Shown piece by piece: positions 1-32,605 of a stretch of DNA of 64,000 bases. The stretch's first letter is position 1. Each line of letters starts with the position of its first letter. A program made the position numbers and the translations under genes. Source of the DNA: Promethearchaeota archaeon (lineage in GTDB: Archaea > Asgardarchaeota > Lokiarchaeia > Sigyniarchaeales > SOKP01); assembly GCA_030599585.1 (NCBI GenBank), contig JAUVNS010000020.1:1-64000 (forward strand), written 5' to 3'. Under the pieces are notes generated by a model. The model was not told the origin of the DNA and made no database searches. It worked only from the letters and a program-made list of their open reading frames with translations.

Positions 1-372
1 AACCAGATCACGGAAGAGTTAAGCGTGTGTACCAGGTGTTACGCGTGTCGAGAAGCTTGTCCTATGTGCTACTGTAACCTTTGTTTTGTTGATCAAAATA
101 AACCGGTTTGGTTCGGGAAGACAACTGATTTACCGGATGTATTCGTCTATCACTTGATCCGGGCAATGCACATGGCGGGAAGATGCGTTGCGTGCGGTGC
201 GTGCTCACTTGTTTGCCCCATGGGCATTGATTTAAATAAAATTAATAGAAAATTAGAAAAAATCGTTAAAGAACGATTTGATTTCACTTCAGGGCTCGAT
301 CCAGACGTGCTACCACCTATGGTAGATTTCAAGATGGATGACGCCCAAGAATTTATGTTAGAAGAGGATTAA
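1..372 (+). CDS. 5'-truncated 2x[4Fe-4S] protein of an Hdr/Flx (Mvh/Asr-like) cluster, FlxD/FdhB-like C-terminus
   Basis: Frame is open from base 1 (NQITEELSV...). Motifs CTRCYACREACPMCYC and HMAGRCVACGACSLVCP. Lies directly upstream of AsrA/AsrB-like genes. Confidence 0.75.
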   Translation, partial: NQITEELSVCTRCYACREACPMCYCNLCFVDQNKPVWFGKTTDLPDVFVYHLIRAMHMAGRCVACGACSLVCPMGIDLNKINRKLEKIVKERFDFTSGLDPDVLPPMVDFKMDDAQEFMLEED

Positions 373-388
373 GATAAGTGTTTAAGAT

Positions 389-1447
389 ATGGCCGAAAAA
401 ATATTGAAAAAAGATGACATTAGTAAGCTCTATAGCGAGCTAGAAAAAGACTACAAATTTTACGCTCCTACTAAAGTAAAAGGTAATATTGCTTTCAAGC
501 AGATTTCGAATGCTGAAGAAATCGAATTAGACTACTTGAATTCAAAGGTTCCTCCGAAAGAAGTATTATTTCCACAAAAAGAAACTATTTTTGAGTATAG
601 ATACGAAGGGAAAGAAGTAATTATAGAAGAGAGAAAAGATCTCGAGGATAAAATACTAATTTTTGGAGTTAGACCTTGCGATGCGTATAGTTTTAAGCTT
701 TTAGAAGATTTCTTTGCGTCTGGCGACTTTCAAGACGATGTATTTCTAAAAAAACAAGAAAACGCAACAATTATCGGTATTGGTTGTAGTAGTCCCAGAC
801 AATCCTGTTTTTGTACATCTGTAGGAGGACATCCCTTTCAAAAAGAAAGCACCGATGTGTTCTTATCAGATTTAGGAGATAAATTCTTAGTTGAAGGTAT
901 CAGTGATAAAGGAAAAAACCTTGTTAAAAAATTAACTTGGCTTTCTGACGCTAAAAAAGCAGATGTTGATAAAGCAAAGGATTTAGCAAAGCAAGCAGAA
1001 GAATTGATTACAACTAAGTTTAATTTTGATTTAGTAACAAAAGTATTGGACGAAAACTTCGAACATCCAGTCTGGCAAGAAATTAGCGAAAGTTGCATCG
1101 GGTGTAGTTCTTGTACTTTTCTGTGCCCTACTTGTACCTGTTTTGATGTTATCGACGAAAACGACGAATATAATAACCGAGGTAGACGAATTAGGATTTG
1201 GGACACCTGTCAATCGTGTCTTTATACGCTTGAAACGAGCGGTCATAACCCTCGCCCAGCTAAGATACAAAGGTGTAGAAATCGAATAATGCACAAGTTT
1301 AGTTATTATCCCTCGAACTACGATTGTTTAGGGTGTGTGGGGTGCGGAAGATGCATTACTGCTTGTCCCGTTAATAACGAGCTCAGACTAATAATTGATA
1401 AAATACTGGAAATTGAAGAAAAAAGTGGTGAGAAAGTAAGTGCCTAA
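389..1447 (+). CDS. AsrA/sulfhydrogenase beta-like (FlxB-type) 4Fe-4S protein
   Basis: Motifs GVRPCD, CFCTSVG, CIGCSSCTFLCPTCTCF, R-x-WDTC, HKF and CVGCGRCITACP. Confidence 0.85.
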   Translation: MAEKILKKDDISKLYSELEKDYKFYAPTKVKGNIAFKQISNAEEIELDYLNSKVPPKEVLFPQKETIFEYRYEGKEVIIEERKDLEDKILIFGVRPCDAYSFKLLEDFFASGDFQDDVFLKKQENATIIGIGCSSPRQSCFCTSVGGHPFQKESTDVFLSDLGDKFLVEGISDKGKNLVKKLTWLSDAKKADVDKAKDLAKQAEELITTKFNFDLVTKVLDENFEHPVWQEISESCIGCSSCTFLCPTCTCFDVIDENDEYNNRGRRIRIWDTCQSCLYTLETSGHNPRPAKIQRCRNRIMHKFSYYPSNYDCLGCVGCGRCITACPVNNELRLIIDKILEIEEKSGEKVSA

Positions 1448-2279
1448 TCCATACATCCCTATACTAACAAAAATTAAATCGATGGTCTCAGAAAACGAAG
1501 TTAACGATATTAAAACCTTCGAACTTGAATTCAATAATAATGAAGATTACAAAGCTTTTGATTATATTCCAGGACAATTTGCCGAAATCAGTATTATCGG
1601 AAAGGGGGAATGCCCAATAGGTATAGCCTCTTCTCCAACTGAAGAAGGAACGATTAAATTCACGATTAAAAAAATGGGAACCGTTACCTCAGCATTTCAT
1701 AATTGTGAGATTGGAGACACTATTGGGATTAGAGGCCCTTTAGGAAACGGTTGGCCAATGGAAGAACTAAAAGGAAAGAATATCGTCGTAATTGGCGGTG
1801 GATTTGCATTCTCAACTTTACGATCATTGATTTTGTATGTCTTAGATGACAAATATAGAAAAGATTATGGGAAAATTACTGTTATATATGGAAATCGTAA
1901 TTCAGGAGAACTTCTCTATCGAGATGTTCTTGATGAATGGGAAAAACGAGACGATATTGATATAGTTTTGACAATTGATAGCGAAGAGGAAAGCTGGACT
2001 CGAAAAGTAGGCTATGTTGCTGCAGTTGTTAAAGAAGTCGCTCCATCTTCAGAAAATGCAGTTGCAGTTGTCTGTGGTCCGCCTATTATGATTAAAACAG
2101 CTCAAAGCGAGCTTGAAAAATTGAATTGGAAGGATGAACAGATTCTTAATTCTTTAGAAATGCGAATGAAATGCGGAATCGGGAAATGCGGAAGATGCAA
2201 TATCGGTGATAAATTTGTGTGCATAGATGGACCTGTCTTCTCTTTAGCAGAATTAAAGAATATGCCAAAAGAGCATTAA
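1440..2279 (+). CDS. AsrB/sulfhydrogenase gamma-like (FlxA-type) FAD/NAD(P)-binding oxidoreductase with [2Fe-2S]
   Basis: Motifs PGQF, RGPLGNGW, GGG, CGPPIM and MKCGIGKCGRC...CIDGPVF. Confidence 0.88.
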   Translation: MPNPYIPILTKIKSMVSENEVNDIKTFELEFNNNEDYKAFDYIPGQFAEISIIGKGECPIGIASSPTEEGTIKFTIKKMGTVTSAFHNCEIGDTIGIRGPLGNGWPMEELKGKNIVVIGGGFAFSTLRSLILYVLDDKYRKDYGKITVIYGNRNSGELLYRDVLDEWEKRDDIDIVLTIDSEEESWTRKVGYVAAVVKEVAPSSENAVAVVCGPPIMIKTAQSELEKLNWKDEQILNSLEMRMKCGIGKCGRCNIGDKFVCIDGPVFSLAELKNMPKEH

Positions 2280-8259: not shown

Positions 8260-10575
8260 ATATCGCACCCGCTTTTAAAGGAAAACATTGTTCTGAGGAG
8301 AGCATATCAAGAAAATATTTTTATAAATTGCCTTAATGCAAACTGCTTAGTTGTCATTCCAACGGGATTAGGAAAAACAATAATTGCTTTAATGTTAGCT
8401 ATACACAAATTGTCAGAAACGCCTAATTCTAAAATAATCTTCTTAGCTCCAACTAAGCCTCTTGTAAATCAACATTATAAATCTTTTTTAGATTTAACGG
8501 TTATTCCTGAAGAGAACTTAAAAGTAATTACTGGAACTACATCACCAGAGAAAAGGAAGGATATTTGGAAGGATTTAGAAATTGCTTTTATGACACCTCA
8601 GGTACTTCAAAATGATATTATCTCTAATCTTTACTCGTTAGAGAATGTACCGTTAATAATTTTTGATGAATGTCATCGAAGTGTAGGTGATTACGCGTAT
8701 TGTTTTATTGCTAAGAAATATGTCGAATCCGCTAAGAATTTTCAAATTTTAGGTCTTACCGCAAGTCCAGGATCTACGGAAGAGAAGATTAACGAAATAA
8801 AAAAGAATTTATATATCGACCATGTCGAAATCAGAACAGAACAAGATTCGGATGTGAAACCTTACATCTTTAAGGTTGAGAACGAGTGGATTAAGGTTAA
8901 ACTTCCAAGTGAATTTATGGATATTAAAAAAATAATAACCGAGAAATTAAGAACAATTTATAAATGGTTAAAGCAACAAGAATTACTAAATTCGTCAGAT
9001 ATTACTAAGGTTACTAGAAAAGATTTGCTTGCGTTAGATAGAGTAATTAATGGAAGAATTTCCTCTGCAAGAACAGATGAGGAGAAGTTTAGATTATTTA
9101 CTGCGAAAAAATCTATGGCAAATGCGATAAGATTGTCCCACATGGATGAACTTATCGAGACTCAAGGAGTTAGCGCATTAGATGATTACATGAGAAAAAA
9201 TATTAAAAAGATAAAACAAAACACTGCAAATAAATCACTAAAAGAACTTTTTAGAGATTCTGACATAAAGCGCGCTCTTAGGTTAATAGGAACTAGCAAA
9301 CAAAAAGGTATTGTTCATCCTAAACTTGAAAAACTTGCGGAAATTTTACATAATCAGATCATTGAAAATAGAGACTCGAGAATATTAGTATTTTGTCATT
9401 TTAGAGACTCTGTCAACAATATAGTTAAATTTATTGAAAGAGATGAAGTGGTTAAGGCTCACAAATTCGTAGGACAAGCTAACAAAGCTCTAGATAAAGG
9501 TCTAACTCAAAAAAAGCAAATTCAATTACTAGAAGAGTTCAAAGAAGGAATATATAACACATTAATAGCTACAAGTGTTGGAGAAGAAGGTTTAGATATA
9601 GCGGAATGTGATTTAGTAATATTTTATGACATAGTACCAAGTGCTGTGCGTTCTATTCAACGCCGAGGAAGAACTGGGAGAAAAAAGGAAGGAAAAGTTC
9701 TCTTATTAATGGCTGAAGGTACTCGTGATGAAGGATATTTTTGGGCTGAAAAAGCTAAGGAACGGGTTATGCATCAAAGCTTAAAAAACATGAAAGAAAA
9801 TGATTCAAGCTCGAAAGCAGGACAATCAAACCTTTTAAATTTTATAAAAGAAGAAGAAGACAATAAGGATTCTAGTAATTTAAAAAATATTTCAGATTTA
9901 TCGTCTATCCAGAAGATTGAGGGTGCTCAGGATTACACAATAATTTGTGATAATAGAGAGACAGCCTCTGCTGTTGTTAGAGCATTATCCCTTATGGGAG
10001 TTAGTTTAGAACTAAAACAATTACCCGTCGCAGACTATATACTCTCAGAAAGAGTTGGGATCGAAAGAAAATCAGCACCAGATTTTAACGATTCCGTTAA
10101 GGATGGGAGACTGTTTAATGAACTCTTTGAGTTAAAAAACAATTTTGTCAGGCCCATTTTAATATTAGAAGGGGACCCTTTTTTAAATTCAAACATTAAC
10201 CAAAACGCCCTCTACGGTGCGATTACTTCAATAATTTTGAATTTAGGAATTACAATATATAAAACAAACAATCCGTCTGACTCTGCCATGTTTATTTATC
10301 AGCTAGCTAAAAAAGAACAGTCAGATACTAAAAAGGAATTTAAATTAAGATTTGACAAGAAACCAATAGAAATTACTAGTTTATTAGAATACATCGTTGC
10401 AGGTATACCAGGTATAAACGCTCTTAGAGCTAAAAACTTACTTAGAGAATTGAAATCGCTTCAAAAGATTTTTAACGCTGATATTGGGGATTTAATGAGT
10501 GTTGAAAATATTGGAAAGAAAATTGCTCAAGAAATATATAAACTAAGCAGATTTAAATATCAAGATAAAACCTAA
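8260..10575 (+). CDS. hef: Hef / FANCM-like DEAH helicase-ERCC4 nuclease (N-terminus extends upstream of the ATG at 8392)
   Basis: The in-frame upstream sequence SHPLLKENIVLRRAYQ...IPTGLGKT (Q motif and Walker A) precedes the ATG. Also DECH, LTASPG, QRRGRTGR, ERCC4 DNRE...ADYI...ERK and a C-terminal HhH. Start is inferred at ATA 8260. Confidence 0.93.
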   Translation: MSHPLLKENIVLRRAYQENIFINCLNANCLVVIPTGLGKTIIALMLAIHKLSETPNSKIIFLAPTKPLVNQHYKSFLDLTVIPEENLKVITGTTSPEKRKDIWKDLEIAFMTPQVLQNDIISNLYSLENVPLIIFDECHRSVGDYAYCFIAKKYVESAKNFQILGLTASPGSTEEKINEIKKNLYIDHVEIRTEQDSDVKPYIFKVENEWIKVKLPSEFMDIKKIITEKLRTIYKWLKQQELLNSSDITKVTRKDLLALDRVINGRISSARTDEEKFRLFTAKKSMANAIRLSHMDELIETQGVSALDDYMRKNIKKIKQNTANKSLKELFRDSDIKRALRLIGTSKQKGIVHPKLEKLAEILHNQIIENRDSRILVFCHFRDSVNNIVKFIERDEVVKAHKFVGQANKALDKGLTQKKQIQLLEEFKEGIYNTLIATSVGEEGLDIAECDLVIFYDIVPSAVRSIQRRGRTGRKKEGKVLLLMAEGTRDEGYFWAEKAKERVMHQSLKNMKENDSSSKAGQSNLLNFIKEEEDNKDSSNLKNISDLSSIQKIEGAQDYTIICDNRETASAVVRALSLMGVSLELKQLPVADYILSERVGIERKSAPDFNDSVKDGRLFNELFELKNNFVRPILILEGDPFLNSNINQNALYGAITSIILNLGITIYKTNNPSDSAMFIYQLAKKEQSDTKKEFKLRFDKKPIEITSLLEYIVAGIPGINALRAKNLLRELKSLQKIFNADIGDLMSVENIGKKIAQEIYKLSRFKYQDKT

Positions 10576-26271: not shown

Positions 26272-26427
26272 AAATTAGTGTTATGAATAATGTTATAAAG
26301 AATTGCTTAAATCTAAAATTTCCCTTTTTATCACACCGTATCAAGATTTTCTTTCGTTCTAACAAAATTTATATTCTTGTGGTTTTATGATTCATTAAAT
26401 ACAATATTAGAGAATTATGGTGGAGAT

Positions 26428-26799
26428 ATGGAACTACAACGGTTTAATTATTTAGTAGAAGAATTAAGGGAATATAACGGGATGGAAGAGATTTTCGTGT
26501 TGAGTCCTGAAGGTGAAATCCTTTTTAAATCTGAAGAATTCCAATTATCAAATGAAGAAGCGAAAGCCATCTTAAAAGCGTGGAAAGAACATGAACAAGC
26601 TTTAATGTTCCAGAGCTTTAGATATGCCATTTTAAAAAACGATGAGATACAACTAGCAGCAAAAAATATTGTTGGAGGAAAGGGCAATATAGTTGGATCT
26701 ATTACGAGAGAAGGAGATTACATCATAGCCCATACGCAAGATGAGGGTCTTATTGTGCTTGAATGGTCAATTTTTATCAATAAGATTGCTTGGAGTTAG
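26428..26799 (+). CDS. Profilin-like protein
   Basis: 123 aa from an ATG preceded by GGAG. The pattern IFVLSPEGEILFKSEEFQLSNEEAKAILKAW...FRYAILKND...KNIVGGKGNIV...YIIAH follows the profilin fold order. Confidence 0.78.
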   Translation: MELQRFNYLVEELREYNGMEEIFVLSPEGEILFKSEEFQLSNEEAKAILKAWKEHEQALMFQSFRYAILKNDEIQLAAKNIVGGKGNIVGSITREGDYIIAHTQDEGLIVLEWSIFINKIAWS

Positions 26800-27056
26800 T
26801 TGAAAACAACTTTTTTTTTATATTTTAAAATCGATCAAAATTTAATAAATATTAATTATTGATCAAAAAAGTTCAAATTTTGATTAAATTTTATAAAAAT
26901 AAAACATTCAATTAATTCTAATATAAATATTATAATAAGTTTCAGAGATTGATATAGAAATTACTAACTATTTTAAATCAAGTGTAATCTACATACAAAA
27001 GAATCTCTGGGATTTTCAAATTGATGCTAAAAATAAAATTTAAAGGATAGAACAAG

Positions 27057-28250
27057 ATGGAAACTAAAGCAAATAAAATATACATGCTGTTAATATATAC
27101 AATTTTCCCTACTGTTGCTTCAATAATCTATTTAATTGAAGAACCAATACCTTATCTAGGATTCGATGATTTAATTCATAGAACGAGTAGTATATTTGGT
27201 ATTTTCGCTTTTATTTGGATGTGTTTTAACATCATCATCATGACAAAGATTAAAGTCATAGAAACAAATTATAGCTTGGATTGGTTAAACAAATTTCATA
27301 TGTGGACAGCGGTTATTGCAATAATACTTGGCTCCCTCCATTATCCATTAATGCGTATAGGAGGAGCTATGGATCCAATTCAATTACGTACGGGAAATTT
27401 TGGATGGGCTTCTTTTGTTATTCTATTGGTATTGGCAAAAATCTTCATGTCAAATAATCTAGTGAAGTACAAAGCAATCGGAAAATTAAGATTGTCTGCA
27501 TACATTATGAGATTTAACTATGGCATCAATAAAATCCTTCATAATGTTATGTTGGTAGGATTGGCTCTCATTTTTTACCACTCGATAATATCGTTCACAT
27601 CCATAAGTTCGTTGTACATGCTTGGCGTATATTACTTTTTCTTTGGCATTACGATTATCGGATGGTTTTATCACAAGTTGATTCGAATGTTTCGATCTAC
27701 AAGTGACCCCTATGCGTATCGTAAAAGTTCTTGGGACGATGTAGGCTTGGATGGCATCTCAAAAACGTATAAAAAGTGGGCTTATCGTTCAATAAAGCAA
27801 AACCCTTCCCTCTATCCGTGTTTGCAATGTGGAACGTGTACGTCTGAATGTCCTGTTTCCATTGTTACTAAGGGAAGCTATAACCCAAGAAGGAATATCT
27901 TAGCCACTCTTTTAGGGTATAAAGATTTGCTTCTAAATGGGGACGATTTAGTCATTTGGGGTTGTACCGATTGTCATACTTGTGTAGAAGTATGTCCTCA
28001 AGGTATCGAACTGACAGATTTATTCGCATCCTTGAAGAACCAGAGTATTGCTTTAGGTAAAGGACCAGATTATATTATCGAACAAGCCAAAACAATTTTT
28101 GACAATGCGAAAGCTATTCCCTCTCAGCCAGCTATCGAACGAAGGCGACAAGAATTAGGGTTACCAGCAGTTTCTGAACCAGATATCAGTGAAGTGCAAA
28201 CTTTACTAACTAACTTAGGAATTAAAGATAAATTTGAATTGAGAACTTAA
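27057..28250 (+). CDS. Fusion of a ferric-reductase-like cytochrome b TM domain with an HdrC-like 2x[4Fe-4S] domain
   Basis: About 6 TMs with His pairs FHMW...LHY and LHNV...YH, then CLQCGTCTSECP...YNPR...IWGCTDCHTCVEVCPQG and an HdrC-type tail RRQELGLP. Confidence 0.8.
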   Translation: METKANKIYMLLIYTIFPTVASIIYLIEEPIPYLGFDDLIHRTSSIFGIFAFIWMCFNIIIMTKIKVIETNYSLDWLNKFHMWTAVIAIILGSLHYPLMRIGGAMDPIQLRTGNFGWASFVILLVLAKIFMSNNLVKYKAIGKLRLSAYIMRFNYGINKILHNVMLVGLALIFYHSIISFTSISSLYMLGVYYFFFGITIIGWFYHKLIRMFRSTSDPYAYRKSSWDDVGLDGISKTYKKWAYRSIKQNPSLYPCLQCGTCTSECPVSIVTKGSYNPRRNILATLLGYKDLLLNGDDLVIWGCTDCHTCVEVCPQGIELTDLFASLKNQSIALGKGPDYIIEQAKTIFDNAKAIPSQPAIERRRQELGLPAVSEPDISEVQTLLTNLGIKDKFELRT

Positions 28251-28486
28251 CTCAATAAAAAGTAAAAAATTAAAGAATAAAGGTTCAAAAAAATTAAATG
28301 AATTGAGATTTCATATTTTTTTCTTGTTTTCTTTTAAGATTTTTATCTGTATTTTCAGATACAAATATACAATAAAGGTTATAGTTTATTTAGACAAATT
28401 ATAAATTTTATTGATTATTTGATTATTCAAATAGTAAAAAAAAATTTGTAATAAAAATTATTTAAAAATTCTATTAGGAGAGATTC

Positions 28487-29203
28487 ATGTTCCAGCAAGC
28501 AGGAAGGGGCTATGATATGGCTATAACTCAGTTTTCCCCTGAGGGTCGTCTTTTTCAGGTTGAGTACGCCATAGAAGCTGTGAGAAGAGGAACAACATCT
28601 ATTGTATGCAGAAATAAAAATTCTGTTGTATTTACAGTAGAGAAAAAGAGTTCCGAGCTTCAAGAGATTATTGGCTCTGAGAAAATTTTTAAAGTTGACG
28701 ACCATATTGGAGTAGCCATTGCCGGTTTAACAGCTGACGCAAGAGTTTTAGTTGATAGAGCTCGCGTCCAAGCACAGGTTAATATTTTAAATTATGATGA
28801 AACAATTTCTGTAAAAGATAGCACTTTAAACATTTGCGAATACCTCCAAATGTTTACTCAGAATGCGGGCGTAAGGCCTTTTGGAGTAAGTTTCCTTATA
28901 GCCGGAATTGATTCCAATGGAGAAGCTTCCTTGTATTTAACTGATCCCTCTGGCGCTATGTGGGGCTATAAAGCCTTTGCGATTGGGTCAGGAGCGACTG
29001 AAGCAAGAGCTTACCTTGAAGAAAATTATATAGAAGATATAAGTGATGAGGACCTAAAGTTGTTACCTTTAAGGACCTTGAAGGAATTAATGGGTGAAAA
29101 TTTAAACAAAGATACTTGTGATGTAGCTTTTATTATGAAAGACGATTTAAAATTTAAGCTATTAAATGACCAAGAAAAGGAAGAATTATTAACAAAAATA
29201 TAA
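28487..29203 (+). CDS. psmA: Proteasome alpha subunit
   Basis: Motifs GYDMAITQFSPEGRLFQVEYA, GVRPFGVS and TDPSG. Confidence 0.97.
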   Translation: MFQQAGRGYDMAITQFSPEGRLFQVEYAIEAVRRGTTSIVCRNKNSVVFTVEKKSSELQEIIGSEKIFKVDDHIGVAIAGLTADARVLVDRARVQAQVNILNYDETISVKDSTLNICEYLQMFTQNAGVRPFGVSFLIAGIDSNGEASLYLTDPSGAMWGYKAFAIGSGATEARAYLEENYIEDISDEDLKLLPLRTLKELMGENLNKDTCDVAFIMKDDLKFKLLNDQEKEELLTKI

Positions 29204-29320
29204 TCTTCTTACAGTTATATCTGATTCAAGGTTATCTCAAATTAACGTTTATCTAATAATAGAAGGCAAAAAACAAACAGTAACGAGATATTTCCACAAA
29301 TTAAATAGAGTTAAGTTTCA

Positions 29321-30112
29321 ATGATTGGCAGAGCGCGGATAGATTTAGGTGGTTTTATAATCGGACGCATTGCAAAAGAGGGTCGAACATTTGAAATGCT
29401 ACTATCCCCAGATCAGGCTTGGGAAGCAAAAAAAATGATTCGAGACGAAATCAATAAGCGTCTTGTGGAGGGAAAGGATAAATCTCGTTTTTCAGTTGAC
29501 GAACTTCTAAAAAATCCTAAAATATCAGTTGAATTAATTTTCGAAAGTTTTATTGTATTTGAGGATTTAAGACGAGGAAAAAAAGCTACAGATGGTGATA
29601 TGGAGGCTGTATTTAACACTTCAGAAGGGAGAATTATAGCGGGCCATATTTTACTTGATGGGGAGATTCAATGGACACGCTCTCAAAGAGATGAAGAGAG
29701 GGATAAGAAATTAAAACAAATTATAACGATAATTACTAAAAATGCGATAAATCCCCAAAATAAGAAGCCACATCCTTATCAAAGAATTGAGAAAGCAATA
29801 GAAGAAGCCAAAGTTAAAGTTGACTTGATGAGAAGCGCAGAAGAACAGGTAGATGATGTTATTAAACAGTTACGGGCAATCATACCTATTCGAATGGAAC
29901 AGGTAGAACTCGCTCTTAAAATACCCTCAGCATTTACAGCGAAAGGTTATAATGTTGTAGCGCAATTAGCACAAATTAAGAAAGAGGAGTGGCAATCGGA
30001 TGGTTCGTGGGTATCTGTTGTTAGTTTGCCAGCAGGGTTGCAGATGGAATTAGTAGATAAGTTAAATAAACTTACTCATGGAAGAGTTCAAACTAAAATT
30101 ATAAAATCTTAA
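29321..30112 (+). CDS. sdo1: Ribosome maturation factor SBDS/Sdo1
   Basis: Motifs INPQNKKPHP-RIEKA, AEEQV...IPIR and EEWQSDGSW; located between psmA and rrp4. Confidence 0.93.
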   Translation: MIGRARIDLGGFIIGRIAKEGRTFEMLLSPDQAWEAKKMIRDEINKRLVEGKDKSRFSVDELLKNPKISVELIFESFIVFEDLRRGKKATDGDMEAVFNTSEGRIIAGHILLDGEIQWTRSQRDEERDKKLKQIITIITKNAINPQNKKPHPYQRIEKAIEEAKVKVDLMRSAEEQVDDVIKQLRAIIPIRMEQVELALKIPSAFTAKGYNVVAQLAQIKKEEWQSDGSWVSVVSLPAGLQMELVDKLNKLTHGRVQTKIIKS

Positions 30113-30204
30113 CTGAATAATTGTTGACTAATTTTTGTATAGATTTTTTTTTACGACATTGGTTAAGTTAAAACATAATTAATAAGAAGAAGTGAGTTTA
30201 AGAA

Positions 30205-31023
30205 ATGGACGACGAGAAAAATGAAGTTAATGAAGAACCTACAACGGACAATTCTGAAGATGTAGATGCTGATGAGTTTGATGACGAGGAAACTTCCCGC
30301 GATCTTGTAGTACCTGGAGAAACTTTAACAGAAGACACAAAAACTTATCTACCAGGACGTGGAACTATATTTAATAAAGATAGAACTAAGATTATTTCCC
30401 TAAATATTGGATTAAAACAAGTTAAGAGAAATTACATAAATGTAATTCCCCTTAGAGGGTTTTATACACCCCGTCCAGGAGACAAAGTAATTGCGTTAGT
30501 TACAGATAAAAATCCTGTTAAATACATCTGTGATATAAATGCGAAAGACAGAGGTATTTTAAAACCTAAAAACACCGTAGCAAGAGGAAAACCGAGAGGA
30601 TACAGAGGTGGAGCACCTGATCGACATGATCGTCAGGATAATTCTACAGAAAAGTATAAAATCGGAGATATTTTAATAGTTAAAGTACTTTCAGCAGATA
30701 GGTTAAATAAACCGGAATTAACAACTGTTGGTAAATATTTAGGTAAAAGAAGGGATGGATTAGTAATCACAATTGACACTCCAAAAATACCCCGAGTTAT
30801 AGGCCGTAGTGGTTCGATGATTAAAATGTTAAAAGATCTAACTAAAAGTAATATATTTGTGACCCAAAATGGTCGTATCTGGTTAAAAGGCGAAAATTTG
30901 GCTCATGAAAGATTATTAATAGATGCAATACGAAAAATAGAAAAAGAAGCTCATACAGTTGGGCTAACAGACCGAATGTCTGAATATATTGAAAATGAAA
31001 AAAAGATAAGAGGTATGAATTAA
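30205..31023 (+). CDS. rrp4: Exosome RNA-binding subunit Rrp4
   Basis: LVVPGE, S1 domain, KH motif PRVIGRSGSMI, QNGRIW. Confidence 0.93.
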   Translation: MDDEKNEVNEEPTTDNSEDVDADEFDDEETSRDLVVPGETLTEDTKTYLPGRGTIFNKDRTKIISLNIGLKQVKRNYINVIPLRGFYTPRPGDKVIALVTDKNPVKYICDINAKDRGILKPKNTVARGKPRGYRGGAPDRHDRQDNSTEKYKIGDILIVKVLSADRLNKPELTTVGKYLGKRRDGLVITIDTPKIPRVIGRSGSMIKMLKDLTKSNIFVTQNGRIWLKGENLAHERLLIDAIRKIEKEAHTVGLTDRMSEYIENEKKIRGMN

Positions 31024-31785
31024 ATGCCGTTAATTATTAAAGATGAGTATCCGGAGAAGTTATTTCGTGAAGATGGTAAGAGACTAGACGGTCGAGATAA
31101 GAACGAGTTGAGACCTATTAAAATGGAGGTAGGAGTGTTAGAAAATGCTGACGGTTCGGCTTACTTGGAATGGGGTAACAACAAAATCTATTGTGCCGTT
31201 TATGGACCCAGAGAAGTTCACCCTCACCATTTAGCAAAACCGGACAGAGGAATCTTACGCGTTTTTTATCGGATGGCAACTTTTTCGGTATTTGAAAGAA
31301 AACGACCTGCTCCTGGGCGCCGAGAAAAAGAAGTTTCAATGGTAATAAGGGACTGCTTGAAACCCGTTCTCTTTTTAGAACTTTATCCTGGAACATCCTT
31401 TGAAGTTTTTATCAACGTTTTAGATGCAGATGGTGGAACACGATGTGCTTGTACGACTGTTGCAGCATTAGCACTTGCAGATGCAGGTATTCCTATGAGA
31501 AGTTTAGTAACCGCAGTTGCTATAGGTAAAATTGATGGAGAATTAATTACTGATCTATCAGGAATAGAAGATAAAGCAGGTGAGGCGGATTTACCTTGCG
31601 CAATGACTTGGTTTAACGAAGAACTGTCGTTACTTCAATTCGATGGTAGTATGGACTTAGATGAATTTAGCAAAAGTTTAACCCTTGCTAAAGAGGCAAT
31701 CTCTAAAATCTATGAAATTCAGTTGAATGCGTTGAAAAAGAAATATATTGATATTCAAGAAGAATACAGCGGAGGAAAGAAATAA
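31024..31785 (+). CDS. rrp41: Exosome catalytic subunit Rrp41
   Basis: Motifs RLDGR...ELRP, ADGSAY, VYGPRE, ADGGTR and EDKAGEADLP. Confidence 0.96.
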   Translation: MPLIIKDEYPEKLFREDGKRLDGRDKNELRPIKMEVGVLENADGSAYLEWGNNKIYCAVYGPREVHPHHLAKPDRGILRVFYRMATFSVFERKRPAPGRREKEVSMVIRDCLKPVLFLELYPGTSFEVFINVLDADGGTRCACTTVAALALADAGIPMRSLVTAVAIGKIDGELITDLSGIEDKAGEADLPCAMTWFNEELSLLQFDGSMDLDEFSKSLTLAKEAISKIYEIQLNALKKKYIDIQEEYSGGKK

Positions 31786-31786
31786 A

Positions 31787-32605
31787 ATGATGAATATTAA
31801 GCGAGTAATATCGACTATAGAAAAGAATTATATTCTTTCTAATCTAAAAAAAGGAGAAAGAATCGATGGCAGAGATCTTTGGCAATACAGAGACTGGAAT
31901 GTTAAAAGTAATGTAATCGCTTCAGCGGAGGGATCTGCTGAAGTCTCTTTAGGAAAAACAAAGGTGATCACTGGAGTGAAGTACGATGTAGGTACACCAT
32001 TTCCAGATCTTCCTAACGAGGGAGTTTGTACATTTATGGCCGAACTATTACCTTTAGCATCTCCTTTGTTTGAAAGAGGGCCACCTAACGAACAAGCTAT
32101 AGAATTAGCACGCGTTGTGGATAGGGGAATTCGTCATGCAGATTGTGTACAGACTAAAAAGCTTTGTATAAAGGAAAAGAAAGCAGTCTATATTATATTC
32201 GTGGATATTTATGTAATTAGTTATTCAGGAAATTTAATTGATGCTAGTGGTATTAGTTCTTTAGCTGCGTTAATTTCAAGCAAAATCCCCGAAGGAAAAT
32301 GGGAGAACGATGAAGTTGTATGGACGGGAAAATATTTGACAGGAAAAACACTTGTGAACGAATTACCTATAGTTTCAACGTATGGAAAGATTGGAGATAT
32401 TATTTTTTCAGATCCGAGTTTACCAGAAGAATTAGTATGCGATGGAAGAATTTCAATTTCGGTAACTGAAGATAAGATAACATCTATTCAAAAAAGTGGA
32501 TTTGCTACTTTTTCTGTAGAAGAAGTTGAGATGTTAGGTAAAAAATCTATGGAGTTTGGTAAGAAGACCAGAAAAGATTTAAATCTATGGCAGTACAAGC
32601 TTTAG
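31787..32605 (+). CDS. rrp42: Exosome subunit Rrp42
   Basis: Motifs RIDGR, AEGSA, PFPDLPNEG, ELARVVDRGIR and GNLIDA. Confidence 0.95.
   Translation: MMNIKRVISTIEKNYILSNLKKGERIDGRDLWQYRDWNVKSNVIASAEGSAEVSLGKTKVITGVKYDVGTPFPDLPNEGVCTFMAELLPLASPLFERGPPNEQAIELARVVDRGIRHADCVQTKKLCIKEKKAVYIIFVDIYVISYSGNLIDASGISSLAALISSKIPEGKWENDEVVWTGKYLTGKTLVNELPIVSTYGKIGDIIFSDPSLPEELVCDGRISISVTEDKITSIQKSGFATFSVEEVEMLGKKSMEFGKKTRKDLNLWQYKL

Follow-up and report, generated by a model that had tools for sequence, protein, structure and literature searches.

A NOX-type membrane domain fused to an HdrC-like iron-sulfur domain in Lokiarchaeia, a candidate membrane anchor for HdrB-type enzymes

The fusion gene and its two domains

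The first 64,000 nucleotides of contig JAUVNS010000020.1 from a Promethearchaeota archaeon (assembly GCA_030599585.1), hereafter the window, carry a gene in which a ferric-reductase-domain (FRD) membrane module is joined to an iron-sulfur domain resembling HdrC, the electron-carrying subunit of heterodisulfide reductase (Hdr). As listed in Table 1, both modules lie in one complete open reading frame (ORF). The FRD-HdrC fusion is genuine and conserved; its two modules are known, their combination is undescribed, and the function that we assign to the protein is plausible. We read the protein, at a probability of roughly 0.6, as a subunit that anchors HdrB-type enzymes in the membrane and serves them as an electron wire. 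What was computed is the architecture, the conservation of ligands, the fold, the distribution of the family, the linkage to hdrB or hdrD-like genes in relatives, and a predicted HdrB interface; from these we infer heme and cluster loading, HdrB binding by the window copy, what its substrate is, and which way the electrons flow.

Table 1. Features of the fusion gene and its flanks, in window coordinates (TM, transmembrane helix; NOX, NADPH oxidase; AF2, AlphaFold2; pLDDT, predicted local distance difference test)
Feature	Position	Strand	Basis or remark
FRD-HdrC fusion ORF	27057..28250	+	Complete, 397 aa plus stop
Six-helix ferric-reductase/NOX-type membrane domain, residues 1-212	27057..27692	+	AF2 helices, SpNOX fold match, PF01794, P0270
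His81 codon, TM3, cytoplasmic side	27297..27299	+	Invariant in 45 sequences; probable axial ligand of inner heme b
His95 codon, TM3, outer side	27339..27341	+	Invariant; probable ligand of outer heme b
His162 codon, TM5, cytoplasmic side	27540..27542	+	Invariant; probable ligand of inner heme b
His175 codon, TM5, outer side	27579..27581	+	Invariant; probable ligand of outer heme b
His206 codon, W203-x2-H-K-x2-R210 motif, cytoplasmic end of TM6	27672..27674	+	W203, K207, and R210 invariant; H206 at least 90%
Linker, residues 213-249	27693..27803	+	Conserved D217, P218, R222, W226, D227; low pLDDT
HdrC-type domain, residues 250-397	27804..28247	+	TIGR03290, 5odc_C, Foldseek, VIA, soluble HdrC of the same genome
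First [4Fe-4S] motif, C255-x2-C258-x2-C261-x3-C265	27819..27851	+	Four Cys invariant
Second [4Fe-4S] motif, C303-x2-C306-x2-C309-x3-C313-P314	27963..27998	+	Invariant
C-terminal arm, residues 351-392, AKAIPSQPAIERRR..LGLP..E, predicted HdrB clasp	28107..28232	+	Predicted interface, conservation
T9 run after the stop of the upstream profilin-like gene	26811..26819	+	Direct sequence reading
T-rich tract about 65 nt past the fusion-gene stop	28316..28335	+	Direct sequence reading

The AF2 model of the protein (pLDDT, 72; pTM, 0.67) consists of six long helices, at residues 2 to 28, 36 to 62, 74 to 102, 107 to 131, 157 to 178, and 186 to 212, followed by the Fe-S domain. Histidines occur at positions 41, 81, 95, 162, 175, 206, and 307, and four of them form two intramembrane pairs, one on predicted TM3 (H81-x13-H95) and one on predicted TM5 (H162-x12-H175), exactly the spacings that a preliminary description, made from the letters, had reported. 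Six transmembrane helices with bis-histidyl motifs on helices 3 and 5 are the marks of an FRD, the motif being that of Hajjar 2017 (PMC5676040), and both are present. In the model, H81 and H162 lie near the cytoplasmic helix ends and H95 and H175 near the outer ends, which, taken together with what is known of NOX proteins, suggests one inner and one outer heme, arranged as in NOX. Lysine and arginine are frequent at the N terminus (2 residues), in the TM4-5 loop (6 residues), and in the segment after TM6 (5 residues), and none is found in loops 29 to 38 and 179 to 186. Because these three segments are rich in positive charge, the HdrC domain is placed in the cytoplasm, with a predicted N-in/C-in topology as in NOX. 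The inner heme may contact the Fe-S domain through H206.

Pfam Ferric_reduct (PF01794), which some of the homologs carry, matched residues 47 to 171 over profile positions 1 to 119 of 121 (E, 6e-4) with 20.3 bits, under the cut-off of 28. By phmmer, the membrane half (residues 4 to 232) was 27% identical (E, 2.7e-14) to P0270, a 445-aa protein composed of FRD, FAD_binding_8, and NAD_binding_1 domains. The Pfam matches of the fusion protein included no FAD- or NAD-binding family, and its C-terminal half is HdrC; the preliminary description had likewise noted that the usual FAD/NAD domains are absent. Structural alignment of the membrane domain with VIA gave a Z of 15.9 for SpNOX (8qt6; root mean square deviation, 3.7 Å over 178 aligned residues), 13.8 for human NOX5 (8u86), 13.2 for DUOX1, 12.7 for the transmembrane part of csNOX5 (5o0t), and 12.2 for STEAP4 (6hcy). 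Dcytb and b561 scored about 14, and unrelated helical proteins scored 7.2 at most; because the Z scores are similar, fold alone cannot separate the NOX/FRD from the b561/Dcytb families. Foldseek ranked NOX proteins first (probability, 0.9 to 0.98). Altogether, sequence and model suggest a NOX-type membrane domain with two predicted b hemes.

The C-terminal domain is HdrC by sequence and fold, with both cysteine motifs. TIGR03290 (HdrC) matched residues 255 to 384 (E, 4e-22) at 78.6 bits, under its equivalog cut-off of 160, and covered profile positions 4 to 135 of 144, a near-complete HdrC domain, which the preliminary description had called full. Pfam placed a 4Fe-4S dicluster domain at residues 252 to 317. 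HdrC of PDB 5ODC (5odc_C) aligned over its residues 30 to 170 of 184 (E, 1e-18) and was the first Foldseek match of the C-domain (probability, 1.0), and VIA alignment of residues 230 to 396 to HdrC chains gave Z values of 9 to 10.6. A match to the QmoC profile was confined to its HdrC-like part, positions 16 to 98 of 360.

Besides its single fusion gene, the genome to which the window belongs (4.85 Mb in 52 contigs; completeness, 100%; contamination, 8.9%) carries several hdrC paralogs for soluble proteins. Below, C denotes contigs of this genome, G denotes other Asgard genomes, and L denotes the loci compared. The closest paralog, 65% identical to the fused C-domain, sits on C20 between a [NiFe]-hydrogenase large-subunit gene and hdrB. 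Another (52% identity; C11:92020-92448, L010:1408-1947) is an orphan between gelsolin-like and triose-phosphate isomerase (TIM) genes, and one on C9 (41% identity) precedes hdrB and an FrhB-like gene.

Distribution of the family and its gene neighborhoods

A word-indexed search retrieved 162 homologs of the same FRD-HdrC architecture, nearly all of 393 to 415 aa, with about 100% coverage and 46 to 95% identity; the named sources are Loki/Promethearchaeota, "Hermod-", "Hod-", and "Thorarchaeota" metagenome-assembled genomes (MAGs). In an alignment of 45 sequences (41 to 89% identity to the query; mean column identity, 58%), H81, H95, H162, and H175 and the eight cluster cysteines were invariant, and H206 and H41 were kept in at least 90%. 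The histidine conservation on which the preliminary description had staked its heme reading is therefore complete in this set. Among 1.84 billion representatives searched with phmmer, about five full-length clusters at the 50% level were followed by hundreds of stand-alone HdrCs.

To the extent that 185,579 species genomes, pattern-scanned with an alignment of the membrane domain only, reveal it, the family is Asgard: the 17 loci found all belong to Asgard MAGs, two of them being copies on the closed chromosome CP070831.1, and one weak partial match outside the family came from a Clostridia MAG (21% over residues 4 to 87). The fusion gene was not found in cultured strains with this query in this genome set, which does not prove its absence there. 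Counting the genome studied here, 17 of the 400 species genomes of the phylum carry the fusion, namely 11 of the 42 genomes of its own genus, five genomes of a sister genus, and a single genome from a different family of the order; in another five genomes of the phylum, only NOX-like proteins occur (21 to 29% identity). The fusion gene is a patchy accessory gene of Lokiarchaeia-type Asgards.

The two domains gave different trees. The membrane domains formed one clade against three NOX-like outgroups (SH-aLRT, 99). The fused HdrC domains were split among at least four groups, with a different lineage of soluble HdrC next to each, and well-supported branches force at least four changes. This contrast suggests repeated domain exchange or fission: the membrane module may have recombined several times with resident hdrC paralogs, or it may have been lost several times. 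The trees were quick ones of 147 columns, and we regard this as a lead, not a result. A NOX-like protein with FRD, FAD_binding_8, and NAD_binding_1 domains by Pfam is itself encoded in an Asgard genome (450 aa; L046:5998-7350, G170), and a 440-aa protein (L047:5998-7320, G207) clusters and trees with it, the Pfam scan having covered the former only. Their membrane domains are 23 to 29% identical to that of the fusion, and they are possible donors of the membrane module.

The strongest argument for the role of the family comes from gene order in relatives. We clustered all neighboring ORFs at 24 loci. In G137, the stop codon of the fusion gene and the start codon of hdrB share one base. In G228, G230 (two tandem copies), G245, and G189, a gene that we call comp12 is followed after a gap of 6 to 17 nt by the fusion gene and then by an overlapping hdrB. 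The downstream hdrB of these five genomes encodes two CCG domains and overlaps or sits a few nucleotides from the fusion gene; the exported Cys-His membrane protein encoded upstream, comp12, is present in four of the five, not in G137. Furthermore, G203 and G197 encode a small His-rich membrane protein, an FAD_binding_4 dehydrogenase, and an HdrD-like protein directly before the fusion gene, and in G265 a 306-bp gap separates the fusion gene from hdrC-hdrB-hdrA downstream. At L001, L005, and L036, no redox genes were found beside the fusion gene. Because translationally coupled linkage to CCG proteins recurs in several lineages, the family probably works with HdrB- or HdrD-type partners. At L003, a 466-aa Oxidored_q6 (hydrogenase small-subunit-like) gene (L003:7203-8603, minus strand) stands in convergent orientation between the fusion gene and hdrCBA; it is missing from the otherwise syntenic L037.

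The comp12 proteins of the hdrB operons (L041:5062-5976; L042:4873-5802 and 8867-9748; L043:6750-7865, minus strand; L044:6772-7887, minus strand; L045:4783-5898) have 293 to 371 aa, with a signal or anchor, an exported domain of about 150 aa, and three or four transmembrane helices. The family comprises 55 homologs, Asgard-only and all annotated as hypothetical. A single Cys-His pair is invariant in the exported domain (GCHPGGYT; HDICH in the comp12-like copy of the window's genome, C21:198605-199636, minus strand), which makes comp12 a possible single-cysteine covalent (c-type) heme protein. Its transmembrane histidines were considered as heme ligands and dropped, since they are not invariant. 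In G245 and G189, genes for an ABC ATPase and a CcmB-like ABC-2 permease (PF03379, 26.8 bits; L043:2817-4243, minus strand; L045:8387-9691, plus strand) follow comp12, the fusion gene, and hdrB, which hints at heme trafficking.

A cassette of a small His-rich membrane protein (or a comp12-like protein), an FAD_binding_4 protein (GlcD/D-LDH-like), and an HdrD-like Fe-S/CCG protein recurs, both in the window's genome (C21:195541-199636 and C20:32452-35916, both on the minus strand) and at L038:2-3434 and L039:2373-5787. The C20 cassette adjoins a gene for a UbiA-family prenyltransferase, possibly heme O synthase. A protein-atlas search with the small His-rich module (comp25) had no match of at least 0.9; the one lead, DUF420, was weak.

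At the window locus, AT-rich spacers of 257 bp and 236 bp flank the fusion gene. The T9 run is likely an archaeal terminator separating the profilin-like gene from the fusion gene, and the T-rich tract is likely the terminator of the fusion gene. Because of the spacers and these two elements, monocistronic transcription, as stated in the preliminary description, is plausible. In one metatranscriptome, four short contigs fell on 27115 to 27517 (90 to 99% identity), too few for an expression claim, and the missing downstream cover carries no meaning.

Directly upstream, 26377 to 26799 (plus strand) encodes a profilin-like protein of 140 aa (Pfam Profilin; E, 6e-4, below cut-off). Directly downstream, an archaeal proteasome-exosome gene row extends from 28487 to 32605 (plus strand); its first gene, at 28487 to 29203, is proteasome alpha, the only one scanned with Pfam, and the four ORFs after it look from their translations like SBDS, Rrp4, Rrp41, and Rrp42. 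The order of profilin-like gene, fusion gene, and proteasome alpha is constant within the genus. We rejected these genes as conserved functional neighbors of the window copy; the synteny simply mirrors close kinship. The products of three co-oriented genes at 1 to 2279 (plus strand) are a partial protein with a Fer4 dicluster, a 352-aa Fer4_22 protein, and a 279-aa protein with FAD_binding_6, NAD_binding_1, and DHODB_Fe-S domains; together they resemble a sulfhydrogenase beta-gamma, AsrAB, or FlxABC-like module. The preliminary description had seen there part of an Flx/Hdr system that the fusion might tether to the membrane; these Fe-S and FAD/NAD proteins are no more than Flx/sulfhydrogenase-like, their genes lie 25 kb from the fusion gene, and no link between the two was found.

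Proposed electron wire and rival explanations

The C-terminal arm of the fusion protein bears on HdrB binding. Its motif, AKAIPSQPAIERRR-x-LGLP, is near-identical in the fusion and in P0129, a soluble HdrC whose gene precedes hdrB. The window's genome encodes an orphan HdrB (C26:271578-272483; L048) with no hdrC beside it, and a complex prediction of this HdrB with fusion residues 236 to 397 passed its controls, with an ipSAE of 0.92 against 0.41 for the best control; 58 of the 80 solved complexes attained that mark, as did 2 of the 110 mismatched pairs. The prediction runs shared at least 97% of contacts, and the pLDDT of the partner was 92. The predicted interface, residues 351 to 392, holds 12 of the 14 conserved residues of 320 to 397 (Fisher P, 0.01); over the whole HdrC domain, the enrichment was not significant (P, 0.2 to 0.3), so that only the C-terminal arm is enriched. 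The C-terminal extension of the fused HdrC domain is thus predicted to bind HdrB. We rejected co-variation as a means of naming the C26 HdrB as the partner of the window copy, because HdrB is near-universal in the genus, the fusion occurs in 11 of 42 genomes, and the two do not co-vary. The orphan hdrC of C11 and the orphan hdrB of C26 may be a split pair, or this hdrB may be shared with the fusion protein.

The proposed role also raises the issue of heme supply. The preliminary description had pointed to genes for heme synthesis or uptake, and the outcome was mixed. HemB and HemC were not found in the window's genome; on the other hand, C21 carries a CcmF-like gene (C21:199841-201553; PF01578; E, 7e-28) and a CcmE gene (C21:207957-208205; PF03100; 32.7 bits, above cut-off), which softens the issue, as well as a gene for an EB_dh heme-domain protein (C21:193132-194316). 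The CcmF-like gene is divergent from the comp12-like gene of the C21 cassette, which is followed by the FAD_binding_4 and HdrD-like genes. Because Ccm and heme-domain genes are present and HemB and HemC were not found, the organism likely handles heme that it cannot make and scavenges it. Cytochrome c maturation genes are thereby present in an apparent heme auxotroph.

We propose the following mechanism. The NOX-type six-helix domain would hold two stacked b hemes, the inner through H81 and H162 and the outer through H95 and H175. A cytoplasmic HdrC domain with two [4Fe-4S] clusters would replace the FAD/NADPH dehydrogenase module, and its conserved C-terminal arm would recruit an HdrB-type (CCG-domain) catalytic subunit, producing an HdrA-independent, membrane-bound complex like heterodisulfide reductase. 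Electrons would pass along a wire formed by the noncubane clusters of HdrB, the two [4Fe-4S] clusters, the inner heme, and the outer heme. Such a wire would link a cytoplasmic thiol/disulfide couple, or that of another CCG enzyme, to a redox partner at the outer membrane face, which in the operonic subfamilies would be comp12. The job would be equivalent to that of HdrE plus HdrD, DsrMK, or QmoC, done on a ferric-reductase-type instead of a NarI-type cytochrome. Because characterized ferric-reductase-domain proteins run outward and these archaea ferment, we lean slightly, by analogy, toward outward flow that would dispose of cytoplasmic reducing equivalents. The preliminary idea that the fusion tethers Hdr chemistry to the membrane survives in part: hdrB coupling in five genomes, the conserved arm, and the complex prediction speak for it, whereas a link to HdrA or to the Flx-like genes was not found.

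Several points weigh against the anchor-and-wire reading. Both the Ferric_reduct (Pfam) and the HdrC (NCBIfam) scores are under the curated cut-offs, and the confidence of the model is middling (pLDDT, 72), falling to 50 to 65 in the linker and in parts of the C-domain. HdrB-HdrC complexes have already been solved (5ODC), and the complex prediction may show likeness, not binding. Orthologs of the orphan HdrB occur in about 35 of the 42 genus genomes, without co-variation with the fusion. The window copy has no redox neighbor, being flanked by the profilin-like and proteasome alpha genes, and nothing in the data points to the direction of electron flow or to the substrate. Moreover, HemB (PF00490) and HemC (PF01379) were not found in a genome of 100% estimated completeness, which also lacks the NarI, Ni_hydr_CYTB, and cytochrome bd families. 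HemB occurs in 20 of the 400 genomes of the phylum and in 1 of the 17 with the fusion; its rarity fits the report that heme biosynthesis among Asgards is a Heimdallarchaeia trait (10.1101/2024.07.04.601786).

The rival that survives best, although we consider it unlikely, is a stand-alone outward exporter that needs no HdrB. The HdrC domain would then be a ferredoxin-like entry module replacing FAD/NADPH, and electrons from reduced ferredoxin or another soluble Fe-S protein would cross the two hemes to Fe(III), humics, sulfur, or a partner cell. Monocistronic genes in the window and at L001, L005, and L036 agree with this, as do the patchy distribution (11 of 42 genomes of the genus), the lack of co-variation between the orphan HdrB and the fusion, and the outward direction of all known ferric-reductase-domain proteins (Zhang 2013, PMC3591440). 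However, a plain ferredoxin would make no use of the C-terminal arm, which matches the cluster ligands in conservation and falls within the predicted HdrB interface; moreover, hdrB is tightly coupled to the fusion gene in five genomes, and HdrD-like genes adjoin it in two.

Less probable still is a NOX-like enzyme of oxygen or reactive oxygen species, whose outer heme would reduce O2 or a small oxidant outside the cell with electrons drawn from the cytoplasmic thiol/Fe-S pool and so protect an anaerobe. The closest structural relatives are indeed O2-reducing NADPH oxidases, and classical NOX-like proteins with FRD, FAD, and NAD domains occur in Asgard genomes (L046/G170). Nonetheless, oxidative-stress genes flank none of the copies examined, and the operon partners, HdrB and the exported Cys-His protein, point to protein-to-protein electron transfer.

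We consider it highly improbable that the membrane domain is a heme-free relic, a mere anchor for the HdrC/HdrB module in a heme-auxotrophic lineage. Such a relic would suit the failure to find HemB and HemC in the window's genome, the absence of HemB from 16 of 17 fusion genomes, and the lack of any other classical b-cytochrome family found in this genome; but the four histidines keep the exact NOX spacing without exception in a membrane domain whose remainder diverges to 41% identity, the genome keeps CcmF-like, CcmE, and EB_dh heme-domain genes, and a CcmB-like ABC transporter ends two fusion operons.

An assembly chimera or frameshift artifact joining two genes can be dismissed. The fusion is not unique to this assembly: its architecture recurs in 162 homologs from many samples, and independent MAGs, a closed chromosome among them, contain 17 loci. 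Every bin across the domain junction, at 27686 to 27839, is also covered by DNA contigs from two other, independent studies. The fusion stretch is present in sediment and cold-seep metagenomes of 11 studies, and Logan contigs of one run break at 27697/27699, as with strain variation.

A bolder version of the anchor-and-wire reading, which we hold to be rather doubtful as a whole, is that Lokiarchaeia, as heme auxotrophs, run a scavenged-heme conduit from HdrB through the HdrC clusters and two b hemes to an exported single-cysteine heme protein, coupling the cytoplasmic thiol/disulfide pool to extracellular electron transfer. If true, it would allow direct electron exchange with syntrophic partners or minerals, besides H2/formate transfer.

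Comparison with known systems

Lokiarchaeia have been modeled as syntrophic fermenters with soluble Hdr/Mvh-type complexes and neither membrane-bound Hdr nor cytochromes. A di-heme anchor for HdrC/HdrB would let them move electrons across the membrane, which bears on how they dispose of reducing equivalents, on the substrate of their Hdr, and on syntrophy models of eukaryogenesis. Genomes that encode heme proteins and a Ccm system but no HemB and HemC also point to heme scavenging in sediments.

An Asgard transporter census listed Loki and Thor Hdr homologs without an integral membrane subunit (PMC7997004), and a NOX census held one archaeal sequence (PMC5676040). In a survey of the FRD superfamily (PMC3591440), the partners named were FAD/NAD, FMN, Fer2, Rieske, DOMON, peroxidase, EF-hand, SH3, and MFS; Fer4/HdrC was not among them, and archaea contributed only four members. 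The fusion adds a 4Fe-4S/HdrC input module to this catalog. We found no description of a ferric-reductase/HdrC fusion in the full-text literature, subscription journals not being covered. New here are the operon linkage to hdrB and hdrD-like genes, the exported protein as a partner, the disagreement between the trees of the two domains, the conservation of the HdrB arm, and the context of heme auxotrophy with Ccm genes.

With the SpNOX-type NADPH oxidases (8qt6, 8qq7) and csNOX5 (5o0t), the fusion shares six helices, His pairs of x13 and x12 spacing, and a cytoplasmic input module after TM6. It differs in having an HdrC domain with two [4Fe-4S] clusters instead of the FAD/NADPH module; because this domain replaces the dehydrogenase module, the donor or acceptor is probably an Fe-S protein and not NADPH. 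Nothing in the comparison with the SpNOX type points to O2 as the substrate.

The soluble HdrC of HdrABC-MvhAGD (5ODC, 8RVU, 7BKB) and of Asgard Vhu-HdrCB has the same two CxxCxxCxxxCP clusters and the same HdrB-clasping arm. Unlike it, the fused domain is attached to a di-heme membrane domain, probably at the end where HdrA would deliver electrons; no hdrA or mvhD adjoins the window fusion, and the scores stay under the NCBIfam equivalog cut-offs (TIGR03290/NF041779).

MsrQ/YedZ-MsrP and the "MsrQ-like" flavinylation-associated systems (PMC8238504) likewise consist of an FRD protein that feeds an extracytoplasmic redox partner, and in relatives of the fusion an exported protein is encoded immediately upstream. 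However, MsrQ has no fused Fe-S domain and receives electrons from quinol or a flavin reductase, and the partner of the fusion is neither a molybdoenzyme nor an FMN-binding protein.

The closest functional parallel lies in HdrED of Methanosarcina, DsrMK(JOP), QmoC, and GlpC-type anchors, which follow the same logic, from a di-heme b subunit through HdrC-type clusters to a CCG site. Those systems use a NarI-type cytochrome (PF02665), whereas the fusion uses a ferric-reductase type, and PF02665 matched neither the fusion protein nor anything else in its genome. The order of domains is also reversed: QmoC has HdrC before the membrane domain, and the fusion has the membrane domain before HdrC. The membrane parts are not homologous; the relation is one of analogy by convergent domain recruitment, and the fusion would represent a second, independent solution to the wiring of cytochrome b, HdrC, and CCG protein found in HdrED, DsrMK, and QmoC.

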